Assembly (NCBI GenBank): GCA_963727805.1 | Contig: CAVSHF010000003.1 | Coordinates: 1,600,001 to 1,664,000, forward strand | Source of the DNA: an uncultured Nitrospiraceae bacterium | GTDB taxonomy: Bacteria > Nitrospirota > Thermodesulfovibrionia > Thermodesulfovibrionales > Dissulfurispiraceae | Reading direction: 5' to 3' | DNA: 64,000 nt | Part shown: positions 36,806 through 55,908 of the stretch, one piece after another | How the letters are laid out: each line of letters begins with the position of its first letter | Position numbering within the stretch: position 1 is the first letter of the stretch | Notes under the pieces: model-generated | Told to the model about the DNA's origin: nothing | Database searches by the model: none | Seen by the model: only the letters and a program-made list of their open reading frames with translations | Program-made: the position numbers and the translations under genes

Positions 36806-36825
36806 TGAAACGGAGGAAATAAAAC

Positions 36826-37734
36826 ATGAACGTCCGCAGAAAAGTCAATGTCAACGGTACTGAAATTGGAGATGGGCAGCCTGTCTTTGTCATAGCCGAG
36901 ATCGGTATCAACCACAATGGCTCACTAGAGATGGCAAAAAAGATGATAGATGGGGCAGTCTTTGCTGGCTGCGATGCCGTGAAGTTCCAGAAAAGGACCC
37001 CGGAGCTTTGTGTCCCTAAAGATCAATGGTATGTGGAGCGTGACACGCCATGGGGCAGAATGACATACATCGACTACCGTCACCGGGTCGAATTCGACTA
37101 CAATGATTATTCAGAGATAGACCTATATTGCAAGACAAGAGGGATTATGTGGTCTGCTTCATGTTGGGACGAGGAAGCAGTAGATTTTATCGATCATTTC
37201 ACCCCGCCGTTTCACAAGGCGCCATCGGCCTCCCTGACGGACTCCTCACTTCTTAAGAGAATGAGGGCCACCGGCAAGCCGCTGATGATTTCGACGGGAA
37301 TGTCCACGATGGAAGAAATAGAGAATGCCATTGCGGTTGTCGGAACAGACAATCTCCTAATAGCGCACTCCACTTCTGCATATCCCTGCAAGGTTGCTGA
37401 ACTGAACCTCCGTATGGTACCGACGCTAATGGGTAGGTTCCTGGGCGTACCCATCGGGTATTCGGGACATGAAACTGGGCTTGCTCCCACATGGGCCGCC
37501 GTTGCACTCGGGGCATCTTTCATCGAACGGCATGTGACACTGGATCGTACATTGTGGGGAACGGACCAGGCCGCCTCAGTCGAAGTGATCGGCATGCACC
37601 GACTTGTGAGCAATATACGCGACATCGAACGATCGCTGGGAGATGGAGTAAAGAGGATTTATGAAAGTGAGGTAGGAGTCAGGAAGAAACTTCGACGCGT
37701 CGCCGGAGAACACGAAGCGGCTGTCTGTTCTTAA
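36826..37734 (+). CDS. NeuB-family PEP-dependent ulosonic acid synthase (no C-terminal SAF domain)
   Basis: IAEIGINHNG, DAVKFQKR, ISTGMS, HSTSAYP, IGYSGHE, IERHVTLDR, GTDQAAS. Confidence 0.9.
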   Translation: MNVRRKVNVNGTEIGDGQPVFVIAEIGINHNGSLEMAKKMIDGAVFAGCDAVKFQKRTPELCVPKDQWYVERDTPWGRMTYIDYRHRVEFDYNDYSEIDLYCKTRGIMWSASCWDEEAVDFIDHFTPPFHKAPSASLTDSSLLKRMRATGKPLMISTGMSTMEEIENAIAVVGTDNLLIAHSTSAYPCKVAELNLRMVPTLMGRFLGVPIGYSGHETGLAPTWAAVALGASFIERHVTLDRTLWGTDQAASVEVIGMHRLVSNIRDIERSLGDGVKRIYESEVGVRKKLRRVAGEHEAAVCS

Positions 37735-37805: not shown

Positions 37806-38664
37806 TTATTGCAAGCGATTGCGCGCGTAAAGTTCCAGATAAAGGTCAGAAAATCCGTACTCTTCTCGAAGGCGATGCTTCATCGTTTTGATTCCTTCTC
37901 TGTGATAGGCTGTACCCTTTTGTCCTGATTCGCACAGCCATCATTATTTTTTCCGGAGACAACCCCATATGTGTAAGTCCTTGATGTCGCTGATGTCCAC
38001 GAAATTCATGTAGATAAATCTTCTGGCATCCTCCGGGTCTATTTTGGCAGGGTTGCTTGCCATTGGTATATGAAGGCTTTCTCTGATCAAAAAAGTACGT
38101 CGGATAAGCAACGAGCAACCCTATCAGTACACCGTTAAGAGGATCGACGAAATAAAGGCCGGTGAATTTTATGATAATAGCGGATATTATAACCCCAACG
38201 GAGTCTGGCAGATCATTCAATATTAGCATCGTTGCGCCCTTGAGGTTGATGTCCGCAGTATGCTTATAAAACATCAGTAATCCTTAAGCATTAACAGCCA
38301 GGCCGATTACGGCGATCAGGAGAATCTTATCTGCTTCTAAAGGCTCGGGATGAAGTATTTTGTCGTAGGCATCGAAAAAAATATGGAAGAGAAGAAAACC
38401 GGACAGTACCTTTGCCCTTTCGTATCCGGAGGTCTTGGTACTCGTCGGGGATTTTTCTGAGAGCCACGAGACATAGAAAGCCATGAATGAGGCATAGGTG
38501 ACAAGCGCGAGGCTGTGGTAATAAATACCACCCAATAACTCGACGAAGAAGTATGGTGTTTGCAATGAGAACCGATTCTTGAAATTATGTAGCCATAATC
38601 TTTTCCGATCTTGATTAAAATGTGCTTTAAAAACGTTAATCGCGTTCCGTCCATTATTTCTCAT
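37806..38664 (-). pseudogene. Cation diffusion facilitator (CzcD/ZitB-like) pseudogene
   Basis: Fragments FFVELLGGIYYHSLALV, TSGYERAKVL, INLKGATMLILND..SVGVII, DLHIW in three frames with stops and frameshifts. Confidence 0.75.
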
Positions 38665-38808
38665 TACTTGCCTAAGGACAGCGGTCACTTCGATTGCTGC
38701 GGATGTCAGGTAAGTAATGAAGGAAGTAATGGACAAGGGATAGAGGTACATACTATTTTTAGTTATAATACAATTAGAAAAAAGCACAGAATGCGCGGGA
38801 GGCATGTG

Positions 38809-39090
38809 ATGGGAATTCTTGACAATGGACTTAAAGGTAATATTTTCACAGGGCTTGCTATCGGGATTGGGGCAGCTGTGCTGGGGCCAGCCATCCTGCC
38901 TGTTATAGTTGGCGCCGCAAAACCCATAGTAAAAGCTGCAATAAAGGGTGGCATCCTCCTTTATGAAAAAGGAAAAGAAAACTTCGCAGAAGTCGGTGAG
39001 GTCCTGGAAGACATGGTTGCAGAAGTGAAGGCTGAGCTTGCAGAAACCGGTGAACAGGTCGCGACCCCTCCGCCCCCCCCAGAGGCATGA
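38809..39090 (+). CDS. DUF5132-like small GxxxG membrane protein
   Basis: GGGAGG RBS; TGLAIGIGAAVLGP...KPIVKAAIKGGILLYEK...EVLEDMVAEVKAE. Confidence 0.75.
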   Translation: MGILDNGLKGNIFTGLAIGIGAAVLGPAILPVIVGAAKPIVKAAIKGGILLYEKGKENFAEVGEVLEDMVAEVKAELAETGEQVATPPPPPEA

Positions 39091-39581
39091 TACCAGAAGC
39101 GCACATAGTTCATCGATCTTCCAGGCGGCTGCGACTCAAGATGCCGGTGAAAAAGTACCGCGAAGATTATCTAAAGGCACTGCCTGAAAAGCTGGCCGGC
39201 TGCCCCGGAATAAGCGAGATTGAAATCAACCCGGTTACCGGAAGCGTTCTTGTCAAACATGACGGTAATACGAAAGACATCATCGATTTCGTACGGTCCA
39301 AGGGCATATTTACAATAAAATTCAGCTCGGTGAGACCGCCGTCTGTTCATCAGAGCATAACGTCAGTCTATCGCAACCTTGACGGACTTGTGCAATCGTT
39401 TTCGAACGGCTCTACGAATGCAGGCGGCCTTGCTTTCCTGGGACTCATTGCATTCGGTGCCATCCAAATCGGAAAGGGAAACTTTGCAGCTCCTGCGTGG
39501 TACACAGTCTTCTGGTATGCGATGAATATTTTCCTAAAGTCGCAACCCGATGAAGCAGGCCCCGATATCGACGCAGAGTAA
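39087..39581 (+). CDS. Cys-less HMA-like (HMA2) domain protein with C-terminal membrane segment
   Basis: HRSSRRLRLK...INPVTGSVLVKHD; hydrophobic tail with APAWYTVFWYA; ATGA overlap. Confidence 0.75.
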   Translation: MIPEAHIVHRSSRRLRLKMPVKKYREDYLKALPEKLAGCPGISEIEINPVTGSVLVKHDGNTKDIIDFVRSKGIFTIKFSSVRPPSVHQSITSVYRNLDGLVQSFSNGSTNAGGLAFLGLIAFGAIQIGKGNFAAPAWYTVFWYAMNIFLKSQPDEAGPDIDAE

Positions 39582-39691: not shown

Positions 39692-40363
39692 ATGGCAACC
39701 AAAGCTGTAAAAAAAGAGAGCGTCAAAGAGGAAGTCGGCAAGGCGGGATCCAGCGTCAAGGCGGGCATTATCAGCAGTCTGAAGGGGATCAACGAGATTG
39801 AGGCTGAGATCGTCAGTCTCGTCCGTAACACCGTCTCCAACGCATTGCGGGCTACAGGGTCTGTTGCAGGTGAAGGCTTGGAGATTACCAAAGATGTCAT
39901 AAAGGGCGCGATTCAGGCGACAGAAGAAGTCGGCACTGGCCTCATCCTGAGCACCAAGAACGTGGCTAAGGGAGTGGTGATGGGCGTGAGCGATGTTGGC
40001 GGAGATGTAGTCCATGTTGCTTCGCAGACGGTTAAGGGCGCTGTCAAGGGCGCTGCCGAAATCGGAGCCGATGTTGGCCTTGTTGCTAGAAGGGCCGTCG
40101 ACGGGGTTATCGAAGCAGCCAAAGAGACGGGCGGAAACGTCGAAGAGGTTGCAAAAGTCGCCGTAGGCGGAGCAATCGAAGCTGCCGGCACGATCGGCAA
40201 TACGGCTGTGAAGGCAGTCAGGGAAATGCTCGTCGGTGTGGTGGAGGGAGTCAAAGACATCGCTTCAACTGCCTTACCCAAGAGCAGGGAAACTGCCTTA
40301 GCACCTAAAAAGACCCCATCGCCCGAGGTGACATCCAAAAGAAGTCGGCGTAAAGGAGCATAA
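39692..40363 (+). CDS. Ala/Val/Gly-rich protein with tandem 22-aa amphipathic repeats (paralogue of 59011-59613)
   Basis: AAGGAGG RBS; repeats such as TGLILSTKNVAKGVVMGVSDVG / GDVVHVASQTVKGAVKGAAEIG / ADVGLVARRAVDGVIEAAKETG. Confidence 0.85.
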   Translation: MATKAVKKESVKEEVGKAGSSVKAGIISSLKGINEIEAEIVSLVRNTVSNALRATGSVAGEGLEITKDVIKGAIQATEEVGTGLILSTKNVAKGVVMGVSDVGGDVVHVASQTVKGAVKGAAEIGADVGLVARRAVDGVIEAAKETGGNVEEVAKVAVGGAIEAAGTIGNTAVKAVREMLVGVVEGVKDIASTALPKSRETALAPKKTPSPEVTSKRSRRKGA

Positions 40364-40369: not shown

Positions 40370-43300
40370 GTGGTCAGGGCCGTCCATTGGGCTGTAAAAG
40401 GCAGGGTTCGCTTTAAAGTGGACGGCCTCCGCCACTCCGAGGCGCTTAGGCGTCATATCGAGAGTGCTCTGTATGGCAAAGAAGAAATCACTATTCTTTC
40501 GATTAATACGGTGACCGGGAGTGTACTTGTTGCATACAACTCCGGCAATACATGGCAATCGGTAACGCCGGTTCTCGAAGGGATTGTGTCGGAATATGGA
40601 GCCGGCTCTGAGGCAGCAAAACATGTACAAAGCGGTAACGGAAAGAAAGAGGCTGATGCGCAAACAACGGGCAGACGTCTGTCTTCTTCCTCCGAAGCCC
40701 ACAATCTTCAGAGCAGGAGAAAACTCAGAAACCTCGTTGTCCATGCGGAAGATCAGCCGGAAGAGAAATGGCATAATCTCGAAGCGGATACCGTTCTTCG
40801 CCTCGTTTCTGCCGATGAAGACCTGGGCCTTTCCGATGAAGCAGCACAGCAGCGCCTAAAAAAATACGGCCCCAACATGCTTCCTGAGTCAGTGCCTCGA
40901 TCGGGGTTCAGCATCTTCATAGAGCAGTTCAAATCGTTGCCCGTAGCGCTCCTCGGAGTTGCGGCGGCAGTGTCGGTGGTTACAGGCGGTGTTGCCGATG
41001 CTATTGTCATTATGGCGGTAGTCGTAACGAATGCGGCAATAGGGTATGCAACCGAGAGCCAGTCTGAAAAGACAATCAATTCCCTGAAAAGCCTCGTAAG
41101 ACCGACCGCCTTTGTCATCAGGAACAGCAAGATACGCGAGATAGCAGCTGAAGGGGTCGTACCCGGCGATATCATCGCACTCAGGCCCGGGACATATGTG
41201 CCTGCCGACGCACGCCTCATCGATGCCAGCCGTCTCAGCATTGACGAATCGACCCTTACCGGAGAAAGTCTGCCAGTCGTGAAAAGTACTGCTGCCTTGA
41301 TCCAAGGCAATAAAGCTAACGGTAACAATGAGATCCCACTCGGCGACCGCACAAACATGGTCTATATGGGCACGATCGTCACAGGGGGTCAGGGTGCCGC
41401 TGTGGTAATCGCCACGGGGCGATATACTGAAATCGGACACATTCAGACCCTCGTCGGCTCTGCAAGGCCCCCTGAAACTCCGATGGAAAGACAGCTCGAC
41501 CGGATGGGTGGGCAACTCGTACTTATAAGCGGCGCCGTCTGCGGGATCGTTTTTCTGATCGGCCTTTTGAGGGGATACGGTTTTCTCCAGATGCTCAAGA
41601 TATCCATTTCCCTCGCTGTTGCAGCAGTTCCTGAGGGACTGCCCACAGTCGCAACGACTACGCTATCTCTCGGCATACGCAGGATGAGGAAACACAACGT
41701 ACTCATTCGCCATCTCGACGCAGTTGAGACGCTCGGTTCTGTCCAAACGATATGCATGGATAAGACAGGAACCATCACCTTGAATCGCATGTCTATTGTT
41801 GCGTTGCATACTGGGAAAAAACAGGTCCGGGTAGCCGACGGTAAGTTTTTCCATGGCTCCAAGATTCTGAATCCTTATGAATGCGACGAACTTCTGAGGC
41901 TTCTGCATATTGCCGTCCTTTGCAACGAAAGCGATGTAAGACGGTGCACCCCACAAGAACCTTGCGGGGGACCGGTTGTGGATGTGAAGGGAATGGGCCT
42001 TGCTGTTGGAATGATGCAACAGCACATGGTGAGCGGCTCGTCCACCGAAAACGCCCTTATTCATATGGCCCTCGCAGCTGGTATCGATGTCATTCAGCTC
42101 AGGAAAAAGTTTGTGATTGCTGATATCGGACACCGCGCGGAAATGCGTAATTTTATGACCACAACACATAGCGTACCCGATAACAGGAAACTTGTCGCCT
42201 TGAAGGGCAGTCCAGGCGAAGTGCTACAGATGTGCGATCGACATATCGTGGATGGCAAGATACTTCCTCTCACCGAGGACGACAGAATGAACATAGAGAT
42301 TGAAAACGAAAGAATGGCTGGAAATGCTTTGCGGGTCCTGGGCCTGGCTTATAAGCTGCTTGAAAATGAAGAGAATGATACCGATAGTCTTCAGGTGTTT
42401 ATCTGGCTCGGTCTTGTAGGAATGGCCGATCCGGTTAGAAACGGCGTCGGTGACGTCATTGAAGTTTTTCACAGGGCGGGGATCGATACCGTAATGATCA
42501 CCGGCGATCAGAGCTCTACAGCTTACGCCATCGGCAAGGAGCTGAACCTGAGCAAGGGTGAGCAGATTGAGATACTCGACTCGACCCATCTCACCGACAT
42601 AAGTCCTGAGGTACTCAAAGCCCTCTGCAAAAAAGTTCATGTATTTGCGAGAGTCAGCCCTGCTAACAAACTCCAGATCGTCCAGTCTCTGCAGTCCGCA
42701 GGTAGGGTTGTGGCAATGACAGGTGACGGCATCAATGACGGGCCAGCGCTAAAGGCTGCCGACATCGGAATAGCAATGGGGCACACTGGAACCGATGTAG
42801 CACGCGAAGTAGCAGATGTCGTTTTGGAAGACGACAATCTTGAAACGATGATCATCGCAATCAGCCAAGGCAGGACGATCTACAACAACATCAGAAAATC
42901 GGTCCATTTCCTGCTCTCAACTAATTTGAGCGAGATCATGGTCATGTTCACCTCCATTGCAGGCGGGTTGGGGCACCCGCTGAACGCTATGCAGCTCCTG
43001 TGGATCAACCTCCTTTCGGACATTGCCCCTGGCCTTGCACTGGCTCTTGAACAGCCTGAGCCCGATGTGTTGATGAGGCCACCGAGAGACCCAGGAGAAC
43101 CTATTATCAAGACATCTGATTTCAAGAGGATAGGCTTCGAGGCGGCGATGCTCTCTGTAGGCTCTATGTCAGCCTATCTTTACGGCATAACGCGTTATGG
43201 CATAGGTCCGAGGGCCAGCACAATGGCTTTTATGAGTCTCACCTTTGGCCAACTCTTTCATGCTTATAGCTGCAGATCCGAAACTCACAGCCTATTCGAC

Positions 43301-43564
43301 AAAGGGAAAATGCCGACCAATCCATATTTGAACGCAGCCATCGCCGGGTCCATGGGGCTTCAGGTACTCGCCATGGCTGTACCCGGCCTGAGGACGCTTC
43401 TTGGAATCACACCGATAGGCTTATTTGACAGCTTGGTCATCGGCGGCGGTGCAGTCTTGCCGCTCCTTGTCAATGAAGCTACCAAGTCAAAACCGAAAGA
43501 AGAGGATAAGAAGCATTCTTCTATCATCTTGCCGGACGGGCTCGTAATTGCCGACTCCGTTTAG
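40370..43564 (+). CDS. P-type ATPase of Ca2+-transporting (P2A-like) class with N-terminal HMA2-like domain
   Basis: TGES, AAVPEGLP, DKTGT, KGSPG, TGDGINDGPALK, LSTNLSE, LWINLLSD; N-terminus KGRVRFKV...INTVTGSVLVAYN. Confidence 0.92.
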   Translation: MVRAVHWAVKGRVRFKVDGLRHSEALRRHIESALYGKEEITILSINTVTGSVLVAYNSGNTWQSVTPVLEGIVSEYGAGSEAAKHVQSGNGKKEADAQTTGRRLSSSSEAHNLQSRRKLRNLVVHAEDQPEEKWHNLEADTVLRLVSADEDLGLSDEAAQQRLKKYGPNMLPESVPRSGFSIFIEQFKSLPVALLGVAAAVSVVTGGVADAIVIMAVVVTNAAIGYATESQSEKTINSLKSLVRPTAFVIRNSKIREIAAEGVVPGDIIALRPGTYVPADARLIDASRLSIDESTLTGESLPVVKSTAALIQGNKANGNNEIPLGDRTNMVYMGTIVTGGQGAAVVIATGRYTEIGHIQTLVGSARPPETPMERQLDRMGGQLVLISGAVCGIVFLIGLLRGYGFLQMLKISISLAVAAVPEGLPTVATTTLSLGIRRMRKHNVLIRHLDAVETLGSVQTICMDKTGTITLNRMSIVALHTGKKQVRVADGKFFHGSKILNPYECDELLRLLHIAVLCNESDVRRCTPQEPCGGPVVDVKGMGLAVGMMQQHMVSGSSTENALIHMALAAGIDVIQLRKKFVIADIGHRAEMRNFMTTTHSVPDNRKLVALKGSPGEVLQMCDRHIVDGKILPLTEDDRMNIEIENERMAGNALRVLGLAYKLLENEENDTDSLQVFIWLGLVGMADPVRNGVGDVIEVFHRAGIDTVMITGDQSSTAYAIGKELNLSKGEQIEILDSTHLTDISPEVLKALCKKVHVFARVSPANKLQIVQSLQSAGRVVAMTGDGINDGPALKAADIGIAMGHTGTDVAREVADVVLEDDNLETMIIAISQGRTIYNNIRKSVHFLLSTNLSEIMVMFTSIAGGLGHPLNAMQLLWINLLSDIAPGLALALEQPEPDVLMRPPRDPGEPIIKTSDFKRIGFEAAMLSVGSMSAYLYGITRYGIGPRASTMAFMSLTFGQLFHAYSCRSETHSLFDKGKMPTNPYLNAAIAGSMGLQVLAMAVPGLRTLLGITPIGLFDSLVIGGGAVLPLLVNEATKSKPKEEDKKHSSIILPDGLVIADSV

Positions 43565-43620: not shown

Positions 43621-44805
43621 ATGAAGAAAGATTTCATGTTTACTTCTGAATCTGTGACAGAGGGACATCCCGACAAACTATGTGATCAGATTAGCGACGC
43701 CATCGTCGACCATTTTCTTCAGAAAGATCCGTTCTCAAGGGTCATTGCCGAATGCGCGGTATCGACGGCAATAGTATTCATTGCGGCCAGATTTAGTTCA
43801 GGTGATTCGGTGGACTTTCCAGGCATTGCACGTCAGGTCATCAGCCAGGTGGGATATGACCAAAATACATTCAATTCAAAGACCTGCAGCATCTTGACGA
43901 GCCTTAAAGAACTTCCTGAAGAAACAAATCGCTTCGACGAAAATGACCTAAGCGATGAAGAGATCGAGAAAATTACGGTAAAAAACCAGGTGACGGTCTT
44001 CGGTTTCGCCTGCAATCAGACGTCTGCGCTCATGCCCTTGCCGATATGGCTCGCACGGAAGCTCTCACGTAGACTTGCGTCGACACGGCTGCAGAGAATT
44101 CTCCCTTATCTTTCGCCTGACGGTAAGACACAGGTGGGGATCGAGTACCGTGACCGCAAGCCCAGGCGCATTCACAGCATTACGCTTATCGCAAGCCAGA
44201 ATATCGAAGGAACTCCCAATCTCAGGCGCCTTAGAGATGAAATGCGGGAAACCGTCATAGAACCGGCATTTCAGGATGAAGAAATAAAACCCGACAGCGC
44301 TACGAGGATATTCGTAAATCCCGACGGGCCGTTTATCATAGGCGGACCTTCAGTTCATTCGGGCCTTACCGGCAGAAAAAATGCAATCGACACCTACGGC
44401 GAATACTCCCGTCACAGCGGGGCTGCCCTGAGCGGCAAGGACCCTATGAGAATAGACAGGGTGGGAGCCTATATGGCTCGCTATGCGGCAAAGAACATCG
44501 TCGTGGCAGGCCTTGCAGACGAATGCGAGGTGCAGCTCAGCTATTCAATCGGCCTCTCCCGCCCGGTGAGCATTCAGATCGAGACTTTTGGTACCGGCCG
44601 GATTACAGATGACGAGATTGCGTCGCTCGTTGAAAGGCATTTTGACTTCCGGCTCGCCGCTATAGTGAAACAGTTCAGACTCAGGCTTCTTCCGTCAATC
44701 GTAAAGGGTGGTTTTTATCGGAAGCTCGCGGCTTACGGTCATGTTGGCCGTATGGATATTGGCTTACCCTGGGAACTGACAGATCGAGCGTCTCTCCTTA
44801 AATGA
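43621..44805 (+). CDS. Divergent methionine adenosyltransferase (MetK-fold) paralogue
   Basis: FTSESVTEGHPDK, PDGKTQV, GLTGRK, SGKDP..IDR, AAYGH.GR retained; GEIT, QSPDI and GAGDQG motifs absent. Confidence 0.85.
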   Translation: MKKDFMFTSESVTEGHPDKLCDQISDAIVDHFLQKDPFSRVIAECAVSTAIVFIAARFSSGDSVDFPGIARQVISQVGYDQNTFNSKTCSILTSLKELPEETNRFDENDLSDEEIEKITVKNQVTVFGFACNQTSALMPLPIWLARKLSRRLASTRLQRILPYLSPDGKTQVGIEYRDRKPRRIHSITLIASQNIEGTPNLRRLRDEMRETVIEPAFQDEEIKPDSATRIFVNPDGPFIIGGPSVHSGLTGRKNAIDTYGEYSRHSGAALSGKDPMRIDRVGAYMARYAAKNIVVAGLADECEVQLSYSIGLSRPVSIQIETFGTGRITDDEIASLVERHFDFRLAAIVKQFRLRLLPSIVKGGFYRKLAAYGHVGRMDIGLPWELTDRASLLK

Positions 44806-45122
44806 ATTTTGGCAAGACAAAGATGTTAAAAAAAGCTTTATCCGAACGTATAGAACCGGTCGGTTGCGTCGAGAAGACCTCTGTTCCCAACAATGCCGCA
44901 CTTAATTCCGCGCATCGCAACGCAATCAAAGCACTCGCCGATCACTTAGGGATAGCGGTCGAAGATGTCTACAGACTGTATTGCATTGTTCTCAACAGAA
45001 TTGCGAAGGAAGCGAAAATTAAAGATTATCTCCCCATTCTTGTCAGCAGAAGAGTAAGTTACCTGATCCAGAAGAAAATAAAGATGAGCCTGCGAGCTGG
45101 CAGGATGATAAACCTGTCGTAG
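44802..45122 (+). CDS. Small helical protein, DUF3562-like three-helix bundle
   Basis: AIKALADHLG...V.RLY...L.RIAKEAKIKDYLPILVSRRV; ATGA overlap with the MetK-like stop. Confidence 0.6.
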   Translation: MNFGKTKMLKKALSERIEPVGCVEKTSVPNNAALNSAHRNAIKALADHLGIAVEDVYRLYCIVLNRIAKEAKIKDYLPILVSRRVSYLIQKKIKMSLRAGRMINLS

Positions 45123-45140: not shown

Positions 45141-45512
45141 CTAGATAAGCATTGCTAGCAATGCGAGGGGCGTCCCCTCAAGAACGGTACCGAGGACCGA
45201 ACCGAGGACTGACCTCCCGATAAAACTGCCCGCTTTGGAAGCCGCGCCATGAATGTATTCATCATGCGTTAATGCTTTGGACTTGTCGAAGTATCCCTTC
45301 CGGTCAAGCAGATTGACGATATCTTCATGTTTGATAACTTTATGATTGTAATTTATAAGTAGACTGCCGGTCGTCAGGTTGACGTCTACGGTAGCTATTC
45401 CGTTTATCGCACCGAGAGTCTTGCGCACCTCGTACAATGCATTTTCGTTTTTCTTTAAGATGGGGCTTTTGATCCTGAGCCGTCCTGGAACATTGTGGAT
45501 GTAATAGTTCAT
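45141..45512 (-). CDS. Cys-less HMA2-like protein with C-terminal GxxxG hydrophobic tail
   Basis: MNYYIHNVPGRLRIK...VNLTTGSLLINYN; TGATG overlap with the upstream Zn-ribbon gene. Confidence 0.75.
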   Translation of the reverse strand: MNYYIHNVPGRLRIKSPILKKNENALYEVRKTLGAINGIATVDVNLTTGSLLINYNHKVIKHEDIVNLLDRKGYFDKSKALTHDEYIHGAASKAGSFIGRSVLGSVLGTVLEGTPLALLAMLI

Positions 45513-45811
45513 CAGTTTTCCACCTTCTGAGCAATTTTTATGTATGTTCGGCACTGAGGGTAATTCGCACACCTGAATGTCAGCATATTACCACCCCTCA
45601 CATTGAGGTGAGTGTGCCCACCACAGTTGGGACAGAGGGGTTTGTTTCTAACCTCCCTCCGGATTGCGTCGGGAGTGAACTGTCGTCCGCAGATGAGGCA
45701 AAGGAATCGCTGCTTACCATTCTTAATTCTGCCGTTCTTGTAGAGAGCGCCGGAATTACACACAGGGCAGTGTAGTTCAGTTTGAGCTCCCTGTTTGCAT
45801 ACGGCTTCCAT
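45512..45811 (-). CDS. Double zinc-ribbon protein (IS1 InsA-like N-terminus + topoisomerase C4-like finger)
   Basis: CPVC...YKNG...GKQRFLCLICGRQF; CPNC...FRCANYPQC; paralogue at 63126. Confidence 0.75.
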   Translation of the reverse strand: MEAVCKQGAQTELHCPVCNSGALYKNGRIKNGKQRFLCLICGRQFTPDAIRREVRNKPLCPNCGGHTHLNVRGGNMLTFRCANYPQCRTYIKIAQKVEN

Positions 45812-45945: not shown

Positions 45946-46284
45946 TCAGGCCCCGATTCCGCCTTCAAGGGAATCTATTATGACCTGTTCAGCGGCTTCA
46001 ACAACTTTTTTTGTCGTATTTTCAATAACCTCATCAGATGTTTGTGCTTCGGCTAAACGGAAATAGTCATGCTTCTCAATAATTCCGATTATCTGCTCGC
46101 AATTTATTATTTTTTCATCAAAGTAGATGACAGCGCTGCCTGTAACGATGTGAATTTCAACCTCTAAAATGCCCTTGAATCCCTTTATAAATATTTTAAA
46201 TTCTTCCCCTTTTTGGGAGTTATCATGAATCAGAGGCGTTTGAATCCTTATTCTGCCCGGCACATAATGAATATAATATTTCAT
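45946..46284 (-). CDS. Cys-less HMA2-like protein
   Basis: MKYYIHYVPGRIRIQ...HIVTGSAVIYFD; similar to 45141-45512. Confidence 0.75.
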   Translation of the reverse strand: MKYYIHYVPGRIRIQTPLIHDNSQKGEEFKIFIKGFKGILEVEIHIVTGSAVIYFDEKIINCEQIIGIIEKHDYFRLAEAQTSDEVIENTTKKVVEAAEQVIIDSLEGGIGA

Positions 46285-47477: not shown

Positions 47478-49913
47478 ATGACACATCTTTATAAAGCAGA
47501 CCTTCATGTGCATTCAAGGTTTTCTAACAAGCCTTCTATTTGGGCACTCAGAAAATTGAACTGCCCCGAAAGTTATACCTTACCGGAAAGCATCTATAGA
47601 ATTGCCCTCAAAAAGGGGATGGATTATGTAACCATAACCGACCATAACACGATAAACGGTTCACTTGAGATTGCCCACCTGCCGGGTACTTTCATTAGCT
47701 CGGAGATAACTACCTACTTCCCTGAGGACGGCTGTAAGATGCATGTCGTTGCACTCAACATCACTGAGCGCAGTTTTGACGACATCATGCACTTGAGAAA
47801 AGACATCTATGAACTCGTGGCCTATCTTCAAGGAAATCGTATCGCCCACTACATCGCTCACCCGCTGTATGATATGAACGGGCGGATTTCGGCTGAAACA
47901 ATCGAGAAGTTGGTGCTTCTCTTCGATGTCTTCGAGACAAAGAACGGCTCACGTTCTCAGCGATACAACCAGATGGTATCCAGTATCCTCGATTCTCTTG
48001 ACGAAGACAGGTTGGCGAAACTGGCTGACCGGCACGGGATCTTACCATATGGACAATCACCGTGGATGAAGGGTTCCGTGGGAGGGTCAGACGACCATAG
48101 TGGCTTTTTTGTAGCGAGGGCATACACGGTATCCCCGGCAGGAAGGTCCATTGATGAGTTTGTTGGCTCAATATCGGACCGTAACAGTCTGCCCGCCGGT
48201 GACGATGGTGACGCTATGATGCTGGCACACAGCATCTACGGCATCGGTTACCGCTTCTTCAAGGAAAAGTTTGAGAAGAAAAAGATCAATTCCATGCCGT
48301 TTGTCAAAGCCCTGATGAAGCAGGTCATGAATACAGATCGCAGCGGAATGCTTCTAATCGAGAGGTTGCAGTTGTTTATCAGGAAGAACATACCGGAGAT
48401 GTATACCGGGCTTGAGGGTAGGACATTCGAGGAGATCATCGACCGGGAGGCGCGCATACTCCTGAACGACCCGAGCTTCCTATCGAGCATAAGCGTCGAG
48501 GATATTAACAGACGTGTTTTCACTGTGACGAGCTACCTCATCAACAGGCTCATATATATATATACAAATCAGATGATAAAGACATGTTTGTCGATGAGCA
48601 TAATGAATCTTGCCAATTCACTAAGCAGCATAGGGTTCATACATCTTCTTGCATCTCCTTATTACCTCGCGTTTCACCATCAGCACCGAAGCAAGGCTCT
48701 GCTGGCGGAATTAGAGACTCGTTTCCTTGCGGAGATCAAATCACCTTTACCTCAGAAGATCGCGCTTTTTACCGATACGCTCCATGAGATAAACGGGGTG
48801 GCGATAACCATAAAGCGTCTTATGGAAAAGGCCAGGAGAGAAGGTGTCGAACTTGTGGTCATTACCTCGAGCCCGGACGAAACATCCTTCAATAACGGCA
48901 TTATGAATTTCAAATCCTTCGGCATGTTCGCACTACCTGAATATCCGGACCTTAAGCTCCATTTCCCGCCCATCCTCGATATTATCGATTATGTGGAAAA
49001 GGAAGGCTTTACGCGGTTTCATGTCAGCACGCCCGGAACTGTAGGTCTTATTTCCCTTCTTATTGCGAAATTGATGGATATCCCCATATCGGGCACTTAC
49101 CACACCGACATCCCGCAATATGTAAAAAGCCTCACTAACGATGCATTCCTAGAGGATGTCGCCTGGAGTTATATGATCTGGTTCTACAATCTCATGGAAG
49201 AGGTGATGGTACCATCTGCAAGCACACGTAAGCAGCTCATCGAAAAAGGTCTTGTTGCGGACAAGGTGCGTCCCCTTCCCAGATGGGTCGATACCGAATT
49301 TTTTACACCCATAAAAAGAGACCCCTATCTATGGACACGGCAGGGGCTTTTCGGCAGGGTGAAGTTCCTTTACACCGGCAGGGTTTCGCGGGAAAAGAAC
49401 CTTGAGCTCCTCTCACAGGCATTCAGGGCGATGATAGACGCCGGCCTAGATGGTGACCTGATTATCGTGGGAGATGGACCGTATCGGCAAGAGATGCAAG
49501 AGCAGATGAAAGGCTATCCGGCAATCTTCACAGGCTTTCTTACGGGAGAGGATCTCTGTATTGCATATGCTTCTTCCGATGTCTTCGTCTTTCCGAGCAC
49601 TACTGACACCTTCGGCAATGTGGTGCTGGAGGCCCAAGCATCCGGCCTCCCTGTCATCGTATCCGACGAAGGTGGACCAAAGGAACTGATGAAAGACGGC
49701 GTAACCGGCCTTTCGATATCTTCCAATAATCTCGATGCCCTGATCAATGCCATGAGCTTCTTCGTGAGCGAGCGCAGCCTTATTAATACTATGGGGGCTA
49801 ACGCCCGGCATTTTACCGAAAATCATTCAATTGATGTGAGCAATGCATACAGCACCATACTCAGGAGCAAGCCTTGCCGAACGCCGCTCGAAGACGCCAC
49901 CATGACCGCATGA
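47478..49913 (+). CDS. PHP-domain metallophosphoesterase fused to GT4 glycosyltransferase
   Basis: DLHVHS, TITDHN, AHP, GGSDDH (PHP); IALFTDT..EINGVA, HVSTPG, YHTD, GRVSREKN, TDTFGNVVLEAQASGLP (GT4). Confidence 0.9.
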   Translation: MTHLYKADLHVHSRFSNKPSIWALRKLNCPESYTLPESIYRIALKKGMDYVTITDHNTINGSLEIAHLPGTFISSEITTYFPEDGCKMHVVALNITERSFDDIMHLRKDIYELVAYLQGNRIAHYIAHPLYDMNGRISAETIEKLVLLFDVFETKNGSRSQRYNQMVSSILDSLDEDRLAKLADRHGILPYGQSPWMKGSVGGSDDHSGFFVARAYTVSPAGRSIDEFVGSISDRNSLPAGDDGDAMMLAHSIYGIGYRFFKEKFEKKKINSMPFVKALMKQVMNTDRSGMLLIERLQLFIRKNIPEMYTGLEGRTFEEIIDREARILLNDPSFLSSISVEDINRRVFTVTSYLINRLIYIYTNQMIKTCLSMSIMNLANSLSSIGFIHLLASPYYLAFHHQHRSKALLAELETRFLAEIKSPLPQKIALFTDTLHEINGVAITIKRLMEKARREGVELVVITSSPDETSFNNGIMNFKSFGMFALPEYPDLKLHFPPILDIIDYVEKEGFTRFHVSTPGTVGLISLLIAKLMDIPISGTYHTDIPQYVKSLTNDAFLEDVAWSYMIWFYNLMEEVMVPSASTRKQLIEKGLVADKVRPLPRWVDTEFFTPIKRDPYLWTRQGLFGRVKFLYTGRVSREKNLELLSQAFRAMIDAGLDGDLIIVGDGPYRQEMQEQMKGYPAIFTGFLTGEDLCIAYASSDVFVFPSTTDTFGNVVLEAQASGLPVIVSDEGGPKELMKDGVTGLSISSNNLDALINAMSFFVSERSLINTMGANARHFTENHSIDVSNAYSTILRSKPCRTPLEDATMTA

Positions 49914-51199
49914 CGTCAGGCCATGCCTTAATAAAGGGACTTCAACTCCTTACCCCTTTTTTCAGTAACCACCTCCCAGGTCAGGTCGTCATGCAATACA
50001 CCGACATGTGCAATGCTCAGTGTCCCCAGTGCGGAATGAGGAGCACCGAGTCCTTCAAAAGATCGACGCTCGGCATCGATACTGCCAAAAGGATCATAGA
50101 CCATGCCGCCGCAAGCGGTATTTCCGCTCTCTCAATCACCGGAGGAGAGCCCCTGCTATTTCTCGATGATGTTGTGGAACTTATCAGATACGCTCATGAC
50201 GCGGGCATTAAATATACGCGGACCGGTACAAACGGCTTCCTCTTCATGCATTCAGAAAAACCGGATTTTGAGAAGCGCGTCTCAAAGATCGCTGAGACCC
50301 TCGCCGTAAGTGGCATCTACACCTTCTGGATCAGCATTGACTCTGCAATTCCGGACGTCCATGAGCAGATGCGCGGACTACCGGGCGTCATTCCCGGCAT
50401 AGAAAAAGCCTTGCCCATTTTGCACGAACACGGCATCTATCCCGCAGCCAATCTCGGTATTAACCGAAACATTCTGAGTAATATCGAAGGCAATAATTTG
50501 TCGGTCACACACCCAGTCGAATTCTACGAAGCATTCAGGGAAGCCTTCGGCCGGTTCTATTCATTTGTGATTGATCTTGGCTTTACGATGGCAAACGCCT
50601 GCTATCCGATGAGTATCGACTCCAACAAAATTGCGAGACTCAGCGCCGCTTATGCCGCAACCTCGGAAGCACAACTGGTAGAGTTCGCCGATGATGAGAG
50701 ACCTCTTCTATTCAAGGCGCTTTTCGATACCATTCCACTATTCAGGTCAAAAATTAGAATATTTTCTCCGAGGAGCTCCCTGTACTCTCTCATTAGGCAA
50801 TACACTGTCGGTGAAGAGTACTGCTATCCCTGCAGGGGCGGAACGGACTTTTTCTTCGTCGATGCTAAGGAGGGTGCTGCCTACCCCTGCGGGTACAGAG
50901 GAGATGAACGGCTCGGACGTTTTTGGGAGATCAACATAAAAAACCGGGATAGCGCCTCCTCGTGCAGGAGATGCGACTGGGAATGTTTCAGAGACCCATC
51001 GGAACTGATGGGCCCTCTGCCATCGCTTTTTTCGCAGCCTGTGACTACTCTTTCGAGGCTTATTACAGATAAGACCTATTCAAAACTGTGGCTTGGGGAC
51101 ATCTCTTATTTCCGGGCTTGCAACTACTTCGATGGCCGGAGACCTCCAGATTTCAGAAAGATGTCGACATTCTTACCGAAAGAGGAGAGACGTTCATAA
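49910..51199 (+). CDS. Radical SAM protein with C-terminal Cys cluster (SPASM/Twitch-like)
   Basis: CNAQCPQC, TGGEP, TNG; CRGG...YPCGY...CRRCDWEC; ATGA overlap. Confidence 0.9.
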   Translation: MTSGHALIKGLQLLTPFFSNHLPGQVVMQYTDMCNAQCPQCGMRSTESFKRSTLGIDTAKRIIDHAAASGISALSITGGEPLLFLDDVVELIRYAHDAGIKYTRTGTNGFLFMHSEKPDFEKRVSKIAETLAVSGIYTFWISIDSAIPDVHEQMRGLPGVIPGIEKALPILHEHGIYPAANLGINRNILSNIEGNNLSVTHPVEFYEAFREAFGRFYSFVIDLGFTMANACYPMSIDSNKIARLSAAYAATSEAQLVEFADDERPLLFKALFDTIPLFRSKIRIFSPRSSLYSLIRQYTVGEEYCYPCRGGTDFFFVDAKEGAAYPCGYRGDERLGRFWEINIKNRDSASSCRRCDWECFRDPSELMGPLPSLFSQPVTTLSRLITDKTYSKLWLGDISYFRACNYFDGRRPPDFRKMSTFLPKEERRS

Positions 51200-51213
51200 T
51201 AGGCTTGTTGGGC

Positions 51214-53481
51214 ATGTCCAACAAGCCTCATCTCCCGGCATATTTTCGCTCGGGCAGATTGTGCATATTTCTCTTGTTTTCACTTTTCGCCCTCCTCTGC
51301 GCATCGACTGAAAATGGCTCTGCGGCATCACTTTCGCCGGTCAAATCGATTACCATCGAAGCGCCCTCTGAACTCCTAGAAAATAGCATCACAATATTGG
51401 CAATAGATGATGCGATTAATCTTTTGAAAAAAAGTTTCACAGGAGCTGCCATCTCTCTCAATGGCGATAACGCACAAGTACGGATCATCCTGCCGAAGAT
51501 CATTAAGCATGAACGCCTGATGACTTCGAGCTTTTCCAAGGGAAGGACTTATGACTATCTGAATTATCCTGAGCACAATTACAGATGGCGCTCATCTCGG
51601 AAGAAAGACATCATCACTCTGGAGCTCCGCAGTTCTTCTTATGAAGGGACGGCCTTCGGCATTTATGGTCTACTTCAGGAGAAGCTCGGGTTCAAGTTCT
51701 ATCACCCACGGAGATCCATAATCCCATCCCACAAAGCTTGGCCCCTGCCTCCCAATTTTGATTGGCAGGCAACGCCGCGCTTTGATAAAAAAGGCTTCCA
51801 TATCCACACTCAGCACCCTGTCGAACTTGCCGAGCAACTTCATAACCCCGGCATGGTCAATGCACTTGCTGATGTGAAGGAATACATCGACTGGCTTGCT
51901 CGAAACCAGCAAAACGTCTTCCAGTTTTATCTGCTTCGCGATATTCAACGAGACCAGTGGATGAGGCATGCCAAAGAAATAGTATCATACGCTCACAAAA
52001 GGGGAATCCTTATAGGGGTAGAATTCTCCCTCGCCTGCATACAGCAAAAAGCCTTTCAGGCGCTCAAGCTCCTCAACCCTTTGCAGGGCAGCTATCGTAC
52101 TCAGGTTGATGACACCCTTGCATGGTTGTTGCAGGCAGACTGGGATTTTGTGACCGTTGATTTCTCCATGGGCGAATATATGCTGGATCTTGGTGTGACA
52201 ATGCCGGAATTGCGCGACTATGTAATCACTCAAATCACCACGAAGTACAAAACTAAGGTACTATATGCAACTCACATAATTCAGCAAAAGGATTGCGTCA
52301 AACTGCCAAAGGCATTGCAGAGCATGTTCAGTCCCGCATGCGACGGTACTATACATATCCCTCAGCAAGCAGGGGTTCTGATTCACACCGTGATGTGCTA
52401 CTCCATCGATGCGATGAAAGCTCCGGTATACGGCAATGCAAACCAGCGCTATATGCTTCGGCGAGCTGCTGAGGAAAGCAGAATCCGTGAAACCTGGTAC
52501 TGGCCCGAATCGTCTTACTGGGTCTCGTTTGACAACTCCGTGCCTTTGCTTTTGCTTACGTATCTCGACGCGCGGTGGCGTGATATGAATACCATGAAAA
52601 GGATCGGGGTCGATAACCACATTACCTTCAGTTCGGGATGGGAATGGGGTTATTGGCTGATTGACTGGAGCATCGCTCGATGGTCGTGGGTGCATAAGGG
52701 AAAAGGCAGTGGAAAAACATCCCATCCGCTAAACATATTGTTCGACCTATTCACAGATGAGCGCATTGAAAACATCTGGGAAGAAGCACTTGCTCTCCAG
52801 GACTACTTTTTTAATGAACGCGAATTAATGCCATTGATGTCGGCCCTTGACCCATCAGCGGAACTTCCATCACCTTTCAATCATCCTTTCCAGCCCCGGC
52901 CGAGCTTCACATTCGAATGGCTTCTCAGAAAATCTTCAGATGATTATGTAAACAAGGTCCTGCAGGGCCCTGTCGCTTCACTGATTGATTATGACCAAAA
53001 GATGAGTCATTTGACAAAAATGCTCAAGGTCGAATCGGCACGTTTCTTTTCAAAAAGAAAGCATAGCAATCCTCAACTCAAGGGGCTCATGGATGAGTTG
53101 ACCAGAAGCTTACAGATTACCGCCCTACGGGCCAGGCACCGTTCATTGACCATAAAGGCACTGATTGCAAAACGCGAGCAAGTTCTAAAGGGCCGACTGA
53201 CGAATGAAGCGGAGGCCTTGCTGCAACGTGCCATGGAAGTGCGCAGCGAGGCCCAGACAATAGTGCATGTTCAGGAAGGTGCATACCGTTATCCTGTGGA
53301 ATTGCTTGCACGTAAGCGACAGAGCTTTACTGCTTATGAGTTCGGGTATCTTTATCCTGCAAGCAATCTTTACTTCTGGTGGCGGGAAGAAGAGCAGGTC
53401 CGAAACACTAGATTCGATGCCTTTTATCTGAACATATGGGACTTCAGACGCATCATAGGTCTCGAGAGCCTGCTGTATTAA
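51214..53481 (+). CDS. Large exported hypothetical protein (possibly glycoside-hydrolase-like)
   Basis: Signal-like hydrophobic N-terminus; GTAFGIYGLLQEKLGFKFYHP...PRF.KKGFHIHTQHP...YIDWLARN resembles the GH20/GH67-like N-domain plus barrel layout. Confidence 0.6.
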   Translation: MSNKPHLPAYFRSGRLCIFLLFSLFALLCASTENGSAASLSPVKSITIEAPSELLENSITILAIDDAINLLKKSFTGAAISLNGDNAQVRIILPKIIKHERLMTSSFSKGRTYDYLNYPEHNYRWRSSRKKDIITLELRSSSYEGTAFGIYGLLQEKLGFKFYHPRRSIIPSHKAWPLPPNFDWQATPRFDKKGFHIHTQHPVELAEQLHNPGMVNALADVKEYIDWLARNQQNVFQFYLLRDIQRDQWMRHAKEIVSYAHKRGILIGVEFSLACIQQKAFQALKLLNPLQGSYRTQVDDTLAWLLQADWDFVTVDFSMGEYMLDLGVTMPELRDYVITQITTKYKTKVLYATHIIQQKDCVKLPKALQSMFSPACDGTIHIPQQAGVLIHTVMCYSIDAMKAPVYGNANQRYMLRRAAEESRIRETWYWPESSYWVSFDNSVPLLLLTYLDARWRDMNTMKRIGVDNHITFSSGWEWGYWLIDWSIARWSWVHKGKGSGKTSHPLNILFDLFTDERIENIWEEALALQDYFFNERELMPLMSALDPSAELPSPFNHPFQPRPSFTFEWLLRKSSDDYVNKVLQGPVASLIDYDQKMSHLTKMLKVESARFFSKRKHSNPQLKGLMDELTRSLQITALRARHRSLTIKALIAKREQVLKGRLTNEAEALLQRAMEVRSEAQTIVHVQEGAYRYPVELLARKRQSFTAYEFGYLYPASNLYFWWREEEQVRNTRFDAFYLNIWDFRRIIGLESLLY

Positions 53482-54306: not shown

Positions 54307-55908
54307 CTATGCAATATGCAATTTCATATGATTATTCCACTCCGCAACTGAAGAGGTCTTGATATGCGGCTTTGCTTCCTCCTCGGTCATCGACGGGTTT
54401 TTATATTTGAGCCCCATGAATCTACACATCACGTTAAATAGATAAGTATTGTCGATATACCTGTTAAGACCGAGTTGTTTGGCCTCATATCCGTAGGCCA
54501 ACACTATCTGGTCTTCCGCGGTATGATTTGTAGAGGTAAATCCAACGTTACCCCTTCTCAATAAAGCCGTCTCCACCCCTTCCCCGTTCTTGCCGTAAAT
54601 GCTGTGGGCCAATGCCTTGCCAAGCAAGGCATCCGGCAGATATATGAAGTCCCCGGGGTAAGACTGGTAGCCAGGCTGCATCGATTCATGTATCATCGAA
54701 GCCTCGTCTGCGGAAAGCTTATAAGTAGTATGGTAATCAAAGATGTCCCTGATTTCAGCTGCTGTCTTGCCTTTCATCTGCTTAGTCATTATTTCAAAGG
54801 ATGCCTTAATAGGCATATATTTCTTCAATGCCTCGGTCGAATCATTATAATCAGGCCCGGTCCCGTTGATACCCCAGCCTGAGTTCCCATGGTCTGAGGT
54901 GACGATCACGAGCGTATTTGGGTTCACCTTCAGATACTCTTCTATCACTCCCAGGGTCATATCCATTTCATACGTATCATTGATGGCCGTCCACGCATCA
55001 TTGGAATGGCTGGCATGATCAATCCTTCCCGCCTCGACCTGCAGGATGAACCCCTTTTGGTTCGCAGACAGCCGCTTAAGGGCAAGCGATGTCATCTCCG
55101 TTAGGTTTGGCTGCTTGCTATTCAATGCCTCATCATTCATCCTGTCAACATAATAGCTTATATGAGATGAATTGAAGAGTCCGAGGAGTGACTTGCTTGA
55201 AGACGATGCGGCCATGGATAACAGCGTTTCTTTGTCCTTTGCCACGTCATAGCCACCATCCGCAAATTCCCGAAAGAGGTCTCTGCCATCCTTTCTCGTT
55301 GATGGACTGAAATGTGCGCTCCCGCCTCCAAGCAGGATATCGGGGCGGAATTTCAAATAATCCAGGGCTATGGCATCCTCAAGATCCCTGTGCATCTGAT
55401 GCGAAATCCACGCAGCCGGTGTCGCATGCGTTACCCTCGTGGTCGTGACAAGTCCGGTTGCGTACCCGGACTCTTTTGCTATCTCAAGAATCGTCTTCAG
55501 GGGTCTGCCGTCTGGCAACGCCGACAGCAACCTGTTGGCGGTTTTAGAACCCGTCGCCCATGCCACCGATGCAGGAGCGGAGTCTGTAACGATACTCGAT
55601 AGACTCTTAGTCCCCACGAACCCGATAGCTGCATTCTCGTCTTTCATGCGAGAATAGAAATTGGTATCGGTAGCCCCGTTGAATCTCACCCTCATCTCGT
55701 GCATCGCCTTGATAACTCCGAGAGGCATTCCGTCTCCAACCACAAAAATCAGCCCGCGCGAATTTGAGGACTCAAATTCCTTAAGATTGCTTGCGGACAA
55801 GCCGGATGGTAAAAGGGAGTAAAGAGCCCCGGCACCTATTATCTTCAGCATATTCCTCCGACTGATACCATCGTCGGACTTTTTGTTATTTTCAGGCTTG
55901 TTCATCAA
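54307..55908 (-). CDS. phoA: Alkaline phosphatase (PhoA family) with twin-arginine signal
   Basis: SRRNMLK Tat motif; VGDGM, VTDSAPA (catalytic Ser), THATPAA, EAGRIDHASH, TSDHGN, NHTAED. Confidence 0.9.
   Translation of the reverse strand: MMNKPENNKKSDDGISRRNMLKIIGAGALYSLLPSGLSASNLKEFESSNSRGLIFVVGDGMPLGVIKAMHEMRVRFNGATDTNFYSRMKDENAAIGFVGTKSLSSIVTDSAPASVAWATGSKTANRLLSALPDGRPLKTILEIAKESGYATGLVTTTRVTHATPAAWISHQMHRDLEDAIALDYLKFRPDILLGGGSAHFSPSTRKDGRDLFREFADGGYDVAKDKETLLSMAASSSSKSLLGLFNSSHISYYVDRMNDEALNSKQPNLTEMTSLALKRLSANQKGFILQVEAGRIDHASHSNDAWTAINDTYEMDMTLGVIEEYLKVNPNTLVIVTSDHGNSGWGINGTGPDYNDSTEALKKYMPIKASFEIMTKQMKGKTAAEIRDIFDYHTTYKLSADEASMIHESMQPGYQSYPGDFIYLPDALLGKALAHSIYGKNGEGVETALLRRGNVGFTSTNHTAEDQIVLAYGYEAKQLGLNRYIDNTYLFNVMCRFMGLKYKNPSMTEEEAKPHIKTSSVAEWNNHMKLHIA

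Follow-up and report, generated by a model that had tools for sequence, protein, structure and literature searches.

The window analysed here, a 64,000-nucleotide stretch of contig CAVSHF010000003.1 from an uncultured Nitrospiraceae bacterium, encodes at 43621..44805 (+) a 394-aa paralogue of MetK, the S-adenosylmethionine (SAM) synthetase. Profile matches, alignment and a structure model assigned the protein, designated MetK*, to the methionine adenosyltransferase (MAT) fold. Comparison with homologues well supports the conclusion that MetK* represents a real, conserved sister family of MetK that is misannotated as SAM synthetase. Judged from the residues conserved in the family, MetK* very probably does not make SAM. 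The function favoured here, tentatively and with somewhat less than even confidence, is the hydrolysis of tripolyphosphate or similar short condensed phosphates, by an enzyme that depends on Mg2+ and K+ and is coupled to the cation pump encoded directly upstream.

The MetK* open reading frame is intact, with an ATG start and a clear ribosome-binding site, AAAGGAGG, upstream, and a gap of 56 bp separates it from the stop codon of the pump gene. All three bacterial SAM synthetase domains of Pfam (PF00438, PF02772 and PF02773) matched MetK* whereas archaeal-type MAT (PF01941) gave no match at E ≤ 0.001. The TIGR01034 score of 381.2 bits is above the MetK/MAT cut-off of 309.4, and the source annotations carry the protein under the name SAM synthetase. 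The structure predicted from a diverse alignment had a predicted local distance difference test score (pLDDT) of 96.3 and superimposed on E. coli MAT (7lnn) with a Z of 52.4 and a root-mean-square deviation of 1.6 Å over 368 residues. In the first model pLDDT was below 50 at residues 236-272; the low values disappeared with the more diverse alignment, indicating an effect of the alignment. Identity to the genome's own canonical MetK is 45%. A basic pocket comprising R57, K121, N122, H246, N254, S266 and R277 of MetK* takes the place of the methionine pocket according to the alignment and model, and the protein has an acidic helix at residues 100-118 (9 D/E versus 2 K/R), conserved in the branch of the family near the window protein, as well as a C-terminal insertion near residues 354-365.

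Alignment to E. coli MetK from NC_000913.3 (residues numbered as in mature E. coli MetK) revealed that E8, H14, D16, K17, E42, D163, K165, F230, R244, K245, K265, D266 and D271 are kept. Altered positions are E55R (GGEIT to AARFS), Q98L, G117K and D118N (GAGDQG to TVKNQV), D238H (MGDCG to SVHSG) and K269R, with further changes at T227D, R229P, I246N, G258S and F262L. The MetK/MAT signature GAGDQG is therefore absent, and the gating loop QSPDI is replaced by ELPEET with loss of Q98, S99 and I102. A preliminary description of this DNA, made from the letters alone, had reported retention of the metal and triphosphate motifs together with a list of substitutions, and each of these was found again. 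The loop, which it gave as KQSPDI to KELPEE, needs correction in register only: the glutamine is lost either way, but Q98 aligns to L98 and not to E97.

Twelve catalytic residues of human MAT are enumerated in PMC7271947, and their E. coli equivalents (H14, D16, E42, E55, Q98, K165, D238, R244, K245, K265, K269 and D271) were inferred by alignment, aided by the paired numbering in PMC8715544. The eight metal/triphosphate residues, H14, D16, E42, K165, R244, K245, K265 and D271, are all present in MetK*, and exactly the four methionine-side residues, E55, Q98, D238 and K269, differ, being R, L, H and R. K269 binds the methionine carboxylate. In human MAT the methionine nitrogen is held by E70 and D258 and the methionine oxygen by Q113, and D258 also binds the ribose at O3' (PMC6850014). 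The SAM contacts reported for E. coli MAT are E55, Q98, I102, H14, D163, R229, F230 and D238 (PMC8727953); T227 contacts adenine N1, and in co-crystals with UTP or GTP a phosphate sits in the product region (PMC8715544). The human MAT1A variants R249W, G257R, D258G, A259V and K289N are reported to have lost SAM output with the phosphatase unaffected (PMC6850014, citing its ref. 44). The equivalent E. coli positions are 229, 237, 238, 239 and 269, all of which are altered in MetK*.

The substitutions are shared by the family. In a set of 200 homologues, not dereplicated, that comprised 80 genome loci (the best 80 of 424) and 120 proteins (the best 120 of 5500), E55R was found in 199 and D238H and K269R in all 200; position 118 was N in 177 and D in 21. 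All 24 canonical MetK controls had E55, D118, D238 and K269. Two of 12 MetK* pairs were saturated, and in the other 10 the ratio of nonsynonymous to synonymous substitution rates (dN/dS) ranged from 0.032 to 0.129. In two quick, unrooted maximum-likelihood trees (68 and 57 rows), MetK* separated from canonical MetK with a support of 100 in the Shimodaira-Hasegawa-like approximate likelihood ratio test and formed one long-stem clade that does not branch among canonical MetK. Named records fall under nine phylum labels: Nitrospirota, Planctomycetota, Cyanobacteriota, Myxococcota, Thermodesulfobacteriota, Acidobacteriota, Binatota, Deferrimicrobiota and Pseudomonadota. The gene is accessory, occurring in 33/201 genomes sampled from the phylum of the window, whereas canonical metK is near-universal there (197/201); MetK* was also found in 13/201 cyanobacteria, in 2/401 genomes of a Pseudomonadota sample and in 9/127 genomes of one order. 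The plasmid matches listed (the best 30 of 161 and the best 30 of 35), all below 60% identity, included no MetK*.

The preliminary description took substitutions unique to this copy as the sign of decay; they are instead fixed across the family. That MetK* is a decaying duplicate of metK was rejected and is practically excluded by the fixation of the substitutions in 199-200/200 homologues, a dN/dS of at most 0.13 and the long-stem clade spanning several phyla, even with one frameshifted deep copy (G655) and three database proteins that are internal-deletion chimeras of pump and MetK*. The frameshifted copy lies inside a long GC-rich open frame of 1457 aa, for which a fusion reading was rejected. 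Other unusual MetK sequences were encountered. A second long-branch MetK (L092:5355-6506, genome G050) has canonical E55, D238 and K269 but Q98V and is unrelated to MetK*. Many canonical MetK proteins of 770-880 aa (among P0125-P0237), several named from DPANN archaea, bear PF14528/PF14890, which we take to be of the intein/homing-endonuclease type.

Deep relatives of MetK*, recovered by a profile search of 50%-identity representatives, share 38-59% identity and the R/H-H-R pattern with MetK*. All nine deep-branch genome copies that were placed are directly downstream of a P2A-type pump; the deep set further includes 13 P-numbered proteins. One deep copy adjoins phosphonate-type ABC transporter genes, a label from reading the sequences with no profile match. 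Residue frequencies were tabulated after dereplication of the family at 90%, which left 86 near and 18 deep rows, 104 in all; locus rows were assigned by residue 238, where only H or D occurred, in agreement with the trees. K245 and K265 were present in 104/104 rows, H14, D16 and K17 in 103 (the remaining row being incomplete), E42 in 103, R244 in 103 (one K) and D271 in 102 (two E), while H at 238 and R at 269 each occurred in 103 and E at 55 in none. The nucleoside side differed between branches: K165 was present in 82/86 near and 4/18 deep rows and F230 in 66/86 and 2/18, both being found in 24/24 canonical controls. T227, also 24/24 in the controls, is D or E in 83/86 near rows. The near branch has D163 in 86/86, Q119 in 85/86, N254 in 83/86 and S266 in 85/86 rows. 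Deep members have lost K165, F230 and T227 and also D118; E8 is present in 8/18, H occupies position 55 in 4/18, and several have a short acidic helix or none. With the metal/phosphate residues kept at 98-100%, H238 and R269 at 99% and the nucleoside side lost, the pattern points to selection on the metal/phosphate site and the new basic pocket and not on adenosine binding.

A canonical metK encoding all of the methionine residues is present on contig C5 of the window genome between asd and ahcY, so that the separate copy for which the preliminary description proposed a search does exist. Canonical metK co-occurs with MetK* in 46/50 genomes (in one case in two pieces), in 30/33 of the phylum sample and in 9/9 deep-branch genomes. 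The draft genomes that have MetK* without a full canonical metK (4/50 and 3/33) matter because MetK* might suffice in them. Five of the cases (G202, G018, G004, G009 and G167) were covered by a check of ahcY for assembly gaps: a contig end truncates ahcY in G202 and G018, the gene is absent in G004, G009 and G167, and in G202 asd also ends at residue 290 near a contig end. Assembly gaps are thus the likely cause of the missing metK. G061 contains a fragment of canonical metK. Archaeal-type MAT was not found in G004, G009, G018, G048 or G202; it is present in G167, but that genome lacks ahcY as well, which makes the archaeal-type MAT a weak candidate for a replacement. In some Nitrospirota an archaeal-type MAT gene is located about 6-7 kb from MetK* (L036:17201-18403; G017:C2:330366-331553; G167:C46:3575-4762), the canonical metK of G017 being split into two pieces. 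The neighbourhood survey identified no methyl-cycle gene as a conserved neighbour of MetK*. The original suggestion that the protein is not a SAM synthetase but neofunctionalised is thus well supported by the conserved substitutions, the selection on the gene, the trees and the presence of a separate canonical metK.

The partner gene at 40370..43564 (+) encodes an intact P2A-type P-type ATPase of 1064 aa, assigned by its motifs to the Ca2+ type, with an N-terminal HMA_2/CoBaHMA domain and with TGES, PEGL, DKTGT, the N/E of transmembrane helix 5 (TM5) and the N/D of TM6 intact and Q in TM8. Among 150 pump rows, DKTGT was found in 150, TGES in 143 (the other seven being uncovered) and PEGL in 148, and the commonest ion ligands are N/E in TM5, N/D in TM6 and Q in TM8. 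All 70 full-length pumps have the N-terminal HMA_2/CoBaHMA domain bearing GRxR. The pump scored 638.9 bits against the PMR1 model TIGR01522 (cut-off 798.3) and 541.8 bits against the SERCA model TIGR01116 (cut-off 703.4), both of which are eukaryote-centred. The pump was directly upstream of MetK* in 79/80 loci, the 80th locus beginning at a contig edge, and it preceded 8/9 second MetK* copies, the ninth being at a contig edge. Thus, the position behind a cation pump noted in the preliminary description holds across the family, and the pump-adjacent homologues carry the same substitutions. In the converse search starting from the pump, MetK* was downstream in 61/65 metagenome loci with at least 600 bp of downstream sequence. 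Of 21 strongly supported splits in the MetK* tree, the pump tree reproduces 17 and contradicts two, a congruence explained by shared descent of adjacent genes as well as by co-evolution.

A fusion search of longer proteins (the best 120 of 153) yielded three pump/MetK* chimeras (P0123, P0124 and P0171), which were rejected as Rosetta-stone evidence and are read as deletions or misassemblies, being singletons with differing junctions and deleted pump helices, two of them lacking the MetK* N-terminus. In Chlorogloeopsis fritschii PCC 6912, 14 RNA runs of five studies cover the MetK* stretch and one contig spans pump and MetK* in 2/4 runs; these contigs were not counted as evidence, as neither a transcript nor its level can be read from RNA contigs. 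In the same strain (L064:9130, NZ_CP170746.1), four of four RNA runs are one base short, so the short pump open reading frame of 961 aa in the reference may be due to an error in the sequence or to a difference between strains. Two MetK* copies occur in several cyanobacteria, heterocystous and related ones (G036, G030, G046, G047, G042, G034, G037 and G028), and a separate pump accompanies each copy wherever the contig is long enough to tell.

The proposed hydrolase function begins from the MAT fold, the intact gene, purifying selection, the single clade and the pump linkage described above. Published MAT structures suggest that R57, H246 and R277 would eliminate the two acidic residues binding the ammonium group of methionine, converting the methionine pocket into an anion site beside the triphosphate site. 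Only the second half-reaction of MAT, tripolyphosphate to pyrophosphate and phosphate, would then remain under selection family-wide, since residues on the adenine and ribose side are lost in deep members. In the weakest step, phosphate bound or released by MetK*, which is pictured as dimeric, may be matched to the divalent-cation flux of the pump, either balancing cytosolic Ca/Mg against phosphate or loading a membrane compartment that the DUF5132, CoBaHMA and repeat proteins encoded nearby would form. The human MAT1A variants with changes at equivalent positions could serve as a model for how such an enzyme works, the second half of the MAT reaction proceeding without the first. Of the activities suggested in the preliminary description, a tri/polyphosphatase fits both the conservation pattern and these human mutants, while an adenosyltransferase is weakened by the deep branch.

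Several results weigh against a phosphate hydrolase. K181 and E23, which correspond to K165 and E8, are counted as catalytic in PMC6850014, and deep members without K165 and often without E8 may have weak or no catalysis. The near branch, including the window protein, keeps D163, K165 and mostly F230 and may therefore still bind ATP. E42 and R244 are in addition paired in a salt bridge of the dimer (PMC7271947), hence part of the conservation may be structural. Canonical metK had a lower dN/dS than MetK* (0.017 and 0.028 in two pairs). Many cyanobacterial loci consist of pump and MetK* alone, often without the small membrane genes, and of the four pump loci outside the 61, three near-identical cyanobacterial ones (L099-L101) have no MetK* downstream and one is too short to judge; no gene was evident in the place of MetK* behind the solitary pump at L099. 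Finally, neither PPK1 nor PPK2 gave a match in the window genome, which is 100% complete, so that this genome lacks the enzymes from which short polyphosphate would most obviously come; PPK1 was present in 1/33 MetK*-bearing genomes of the phylum sample, a count confounded by kinship.

The missing polyphosphate kinases and the loss of K165 and E8 in deep members favour a different role, in which MetK* is a non-catalytic or very slow sensor subunit for phosphate, pyrophosphate or nucleotide that switches the pump by direct contact. A sensor is absent from the preliminary description and is the main rival here, fitting nearly as well as a tri/polyphosphatase, although on balance it is considered somewhat unlikely. 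The near-obligate one-to-one linkage, the congruent trees and the minimal cyanobacterial module of pump and MetK* are in agreement with it, as is the observation that deep members drop K165, E8 and D118 yet keep the anion-binding residues. A candidate contact is that of the acidic helix with the basic CoBaHMA domain present in every full-length pump; this helix is, however, short or absent in several deep members, and no intact pump-MetK* fusion was found in the fusion search or the deep loci. Conservation of H14, D16, K17, E42, R244, K245, K265 and D271 at or near 100% would also exceed the usual needs of binding alone. The absence of PPK1 and PPK2 could also suggest that MetK* makes condensed phosphate, forming tripolyphosphate from ATP or extending short chains in place of polyphosphate kinase in a storage module, with a basic pocket that would adjoin the C5' position. 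PPK1 and MetK* occurred together in 1 genome versus about 6 expected at random (38 and 33 of 201), but the exclusion follows families, with PPK1 almost entirely in two of them (f23 and f25), and is not independent evidence. Cyanobacteria normally have PPK1 and nevertheless carry MetK*; S. elongatus, the control, matched in the search for PPK. With the hydrolytic residues intact and the ATP-side residues lost in deep members, such a synthetic role is highly improbable.

Transfer of an adenosyl or other nucleosidyl group from a nucleoside triphosphate to some anionic nucleophile in place of methionine, bound by R57, H246 and R277, is consistent with the near branch, where H14, K165, D163, Q119 and mostly F230 are kept, the new pocket residues N254 and S266 are fixed and D or E at 227 could mean an altered base preference. 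The human K289L mutant was reportedly made to alter co-substrate use. Its structure is on record (6p9v). This transferase activity is nonetheless judged distinctly unlikely, given the loss of D238, also the ligand of ribose O3' (PMC6850014), and of gating-loop residues Q98, S99 and I102, the pump-linked deep members without K165, F230 and T227, and the finding that no conserved downstream enzyme accompanies the gene in the neighbourhood survey. Retention of SAM synthesis through a differently built methionine pocket is very unlikely. The TIGR01034 score, H at position 55 in some deep members and the draft genomes without a full canonical metK could be cited for it, and archaeal MATs catalyse the same reaction with other SAM contacts, H59 and N61 (PMC8727953). 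Yet archaeal MAT retains an acidic SAM contact, D280 (PMC8727953), whereas MetK* has lost both acids. The co-occurrence of canonical metK, the assembly gaps indicated in the five cases checked, the fragment in G061 and the lack of a methyl-cycle gene as conserved neighbour likewise argue against a second SAM synthetase.

In comparison with known systems, MetK* shares with MetK/MAT (EC 2.5.1.6; TIGR01034; E. coli 1RG9 and 7LNN) the three-domain fold, the score above the family cut-off and H14, D16, K17, E42, K165, R244, K245, K265 and D271. It differs at E55R, Q98L, D118N, D238H and K269R, in the rebuilt GAGDQG motif and gating loop, in the acidic helix and C-terminal insertion, and in being an accessory gene behind a P2A pump where canonical metK lies beside ahcY. 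MetK* would work like the second half of MAT but by its methionine residues, signature motif and phylogeny falls outside MetK. The human MAT1A variants (PMC6850014) are changed at equivalent positions, but they are single disease mutations in a SAM synthase, whereas MetK* is a selected family that adds basic residues and does not merely lose contacts. Archaeal-type MAT provides a precedent for divergent SAM contacts (PMC8727953) but is a separate family that keeps the acidic contact.

The gene cluster of MetK* belongs to neither the ferrosome nor the ccyA systems. Ferrosome (fez) clusters (bioRxiv 2020.01.10.902569) likewise encode a P-type ATPase with an N-terminal R-rich/CoBaHMA motif together with small R-rich and hydrophobic proteins, and the R-rich and GxxxG accessory proteins of the MetK* module resemble these. 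The ferrosome ATPase FezB is, however, of the P1B-6 type with D[Y/F]SCA and HNxxT, in contrast to the P2A type with PEGL, and the ferrosome is a membrane-bound metal-phosphate granule dependent on its cluster. In Microcystis, DUF5132 and CoBaHMA genes flank ccyA, which encodes calcyanin (bioRxiv 2024.07.07.602159; PMC8890360). The available text of the Microcystis ccyA preprint contained no match for 'methionine', 'metK' or 'P-type', and no MetK-like gene appeared in the parts of the fez and ccyA texts covered. The family is apparently undescribed so far, no account having been found in literature searches over mostly open papers; the neighbour tables in the fez and ccyA supplements could list the gene. 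Ca- and P-rich inclusions have been reported for C. fritschii PCC 6912, a cultured and non-pathogenic cyanobacterium that carries two MetK* copies.

The preliminary description placed the gene in a phosphate-starvation island. An alkaline phosphatase is encoded at 54307..55908 (-), 9.5 kb downstream as genomic context, and pstC/B-phoU is just beyond the end of the window (C3:1664959-1668156), about 20 kb downstream of MetK*. The best Pho-box-like site upstream of the window operon has three mismatches, and none is convincing; sites within one mismatch were found in 5/71 upstream regions versus 0.85 in shuffles, and the five represent one site in close kin. Genes for pst, phoU, phoH or psiE occurred in the fetched flank of 22/80 loci (25 by script, three with only an ABC ATPase being dropped). 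Support for the island is partial: it is the pump, more than the phosphate genes, that defines the context of the family. The window genome has a Ppx/GppA gene.

The putative operon begins with genes for a 93-aa DUF5132 protein with GxxxG at 38809..39090 (+), a 164-aa HMA_2/CoBaHMA protein with a hydrophobic C-terminus at 39087..39581 (+) and a 223-aa Gly/Ala/Val-rich repeat protein at 39692..40363 (+), which has no Pfam match and whose cluster is present in 49/80 loci. Following MetK* are a 106-aa DUF3562 protein at 44802..45122 (+), the start of which overlaps the MetK* stop (cluster in 26/80 loci), small HMA_2/CoBaHMA proteins of 123 aa at 45141..45512 (-) and 112 aa at 45946..46284 (-), and between them a 99-aa double zinc-ribbon protein at 45512..45811 (-) (cluster in 31/80 loci). 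GRxR/RRxR motifs are found in the pump and the three HMA_2 proteins. DUF5132, additional HMA_2 proteins and the repeat protein surround the pump-MetK* pair in most non-cyanobacterial loci, and CorA, MgtE, CDF or MntP divalent-cation transporters were in the fetched flank of 23/80. The promoter scan was at chance level (9 found versus 9.0 expected), and no SAM riboswitch or other Rfam match was obtained near the operon.

Just upstream of the operon is an apparently broken CDF (cation-efflux) gene in two open reading frames at 37846-38805 (-); an intact CDF gene lies downstream of MetK* in nine related loci. The repeat protein (85% identity) and the zinc-ribbon protein are each encoded a second time, on either side of a ParA-like ATPase gene, at 59011-59613 (+), 60186-60998 (-) and 63126-63437 (+), and ParA-like genes are near the module in three related loci. 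Consecutive genes at 47478-53481 (+) encode a PHP-like/GT4 glycosyltransferase of 811 aa, a radical SAM protein of 441 aa and a protein of 797 aa that matched no Pfam family. Related loci have glycosyltransferases as well as pairs of GNAT and acyltransferase genes nearby, which suggests that phosphorus-free lipids are made. Further upstream, a c-di-GMP-I riboswitch at 21260-21338 (-) precedes a series of genes that leads to those for a protein of 3768 aa and a pore of the ShlB type for two-partner secretion. A cluster at 30580-37734 (+) resembles keto-sugar acid/nucleotide-sugar synthesis, with a cytidylyltransferase, split transketolase, aminotransferase, SDR, phosphatase and NeuB-like synthase labelled from reading the open reading frames and not from profile matches.

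The analysis extends the preliminary description with the pump-linked deep branch that loses nucleoside contacts, the parallel to human mutants, the test for assembly gaps and the finding that polyphosphate kinases are absent. Since MetK* clears TIGR01034 and is called SAM synthetase, genome-based models count a second metK, probably wrongly. MAT is a textbook single-function fold; if the proposed function is correct, a pump-linked family of several phyla would represent a case in which the MAT mechanism has been split naturally, and MetK* would be a new kind of P-type ATPase partner. A more ambitious picture, considered unlikely, is that the pump, the CoBaHMA, DUF5132 and repeat proteins and MetK* build a ferrosome-like calcium/magnesium-phosphate store in which the pump loads the cation and docked MetK* supplies or condenses phosphate, a mineral phosphate reserve for bacteria without polyphosphate kinase. 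Were this so, the phosphate-supply step of a bacterial metal-phosphate organelle would be named, with a MAT-fold protein that has no SAM role. MetK* thus offers a handle on how phosphate may be matched to cation loading in bacterial mineral stores.

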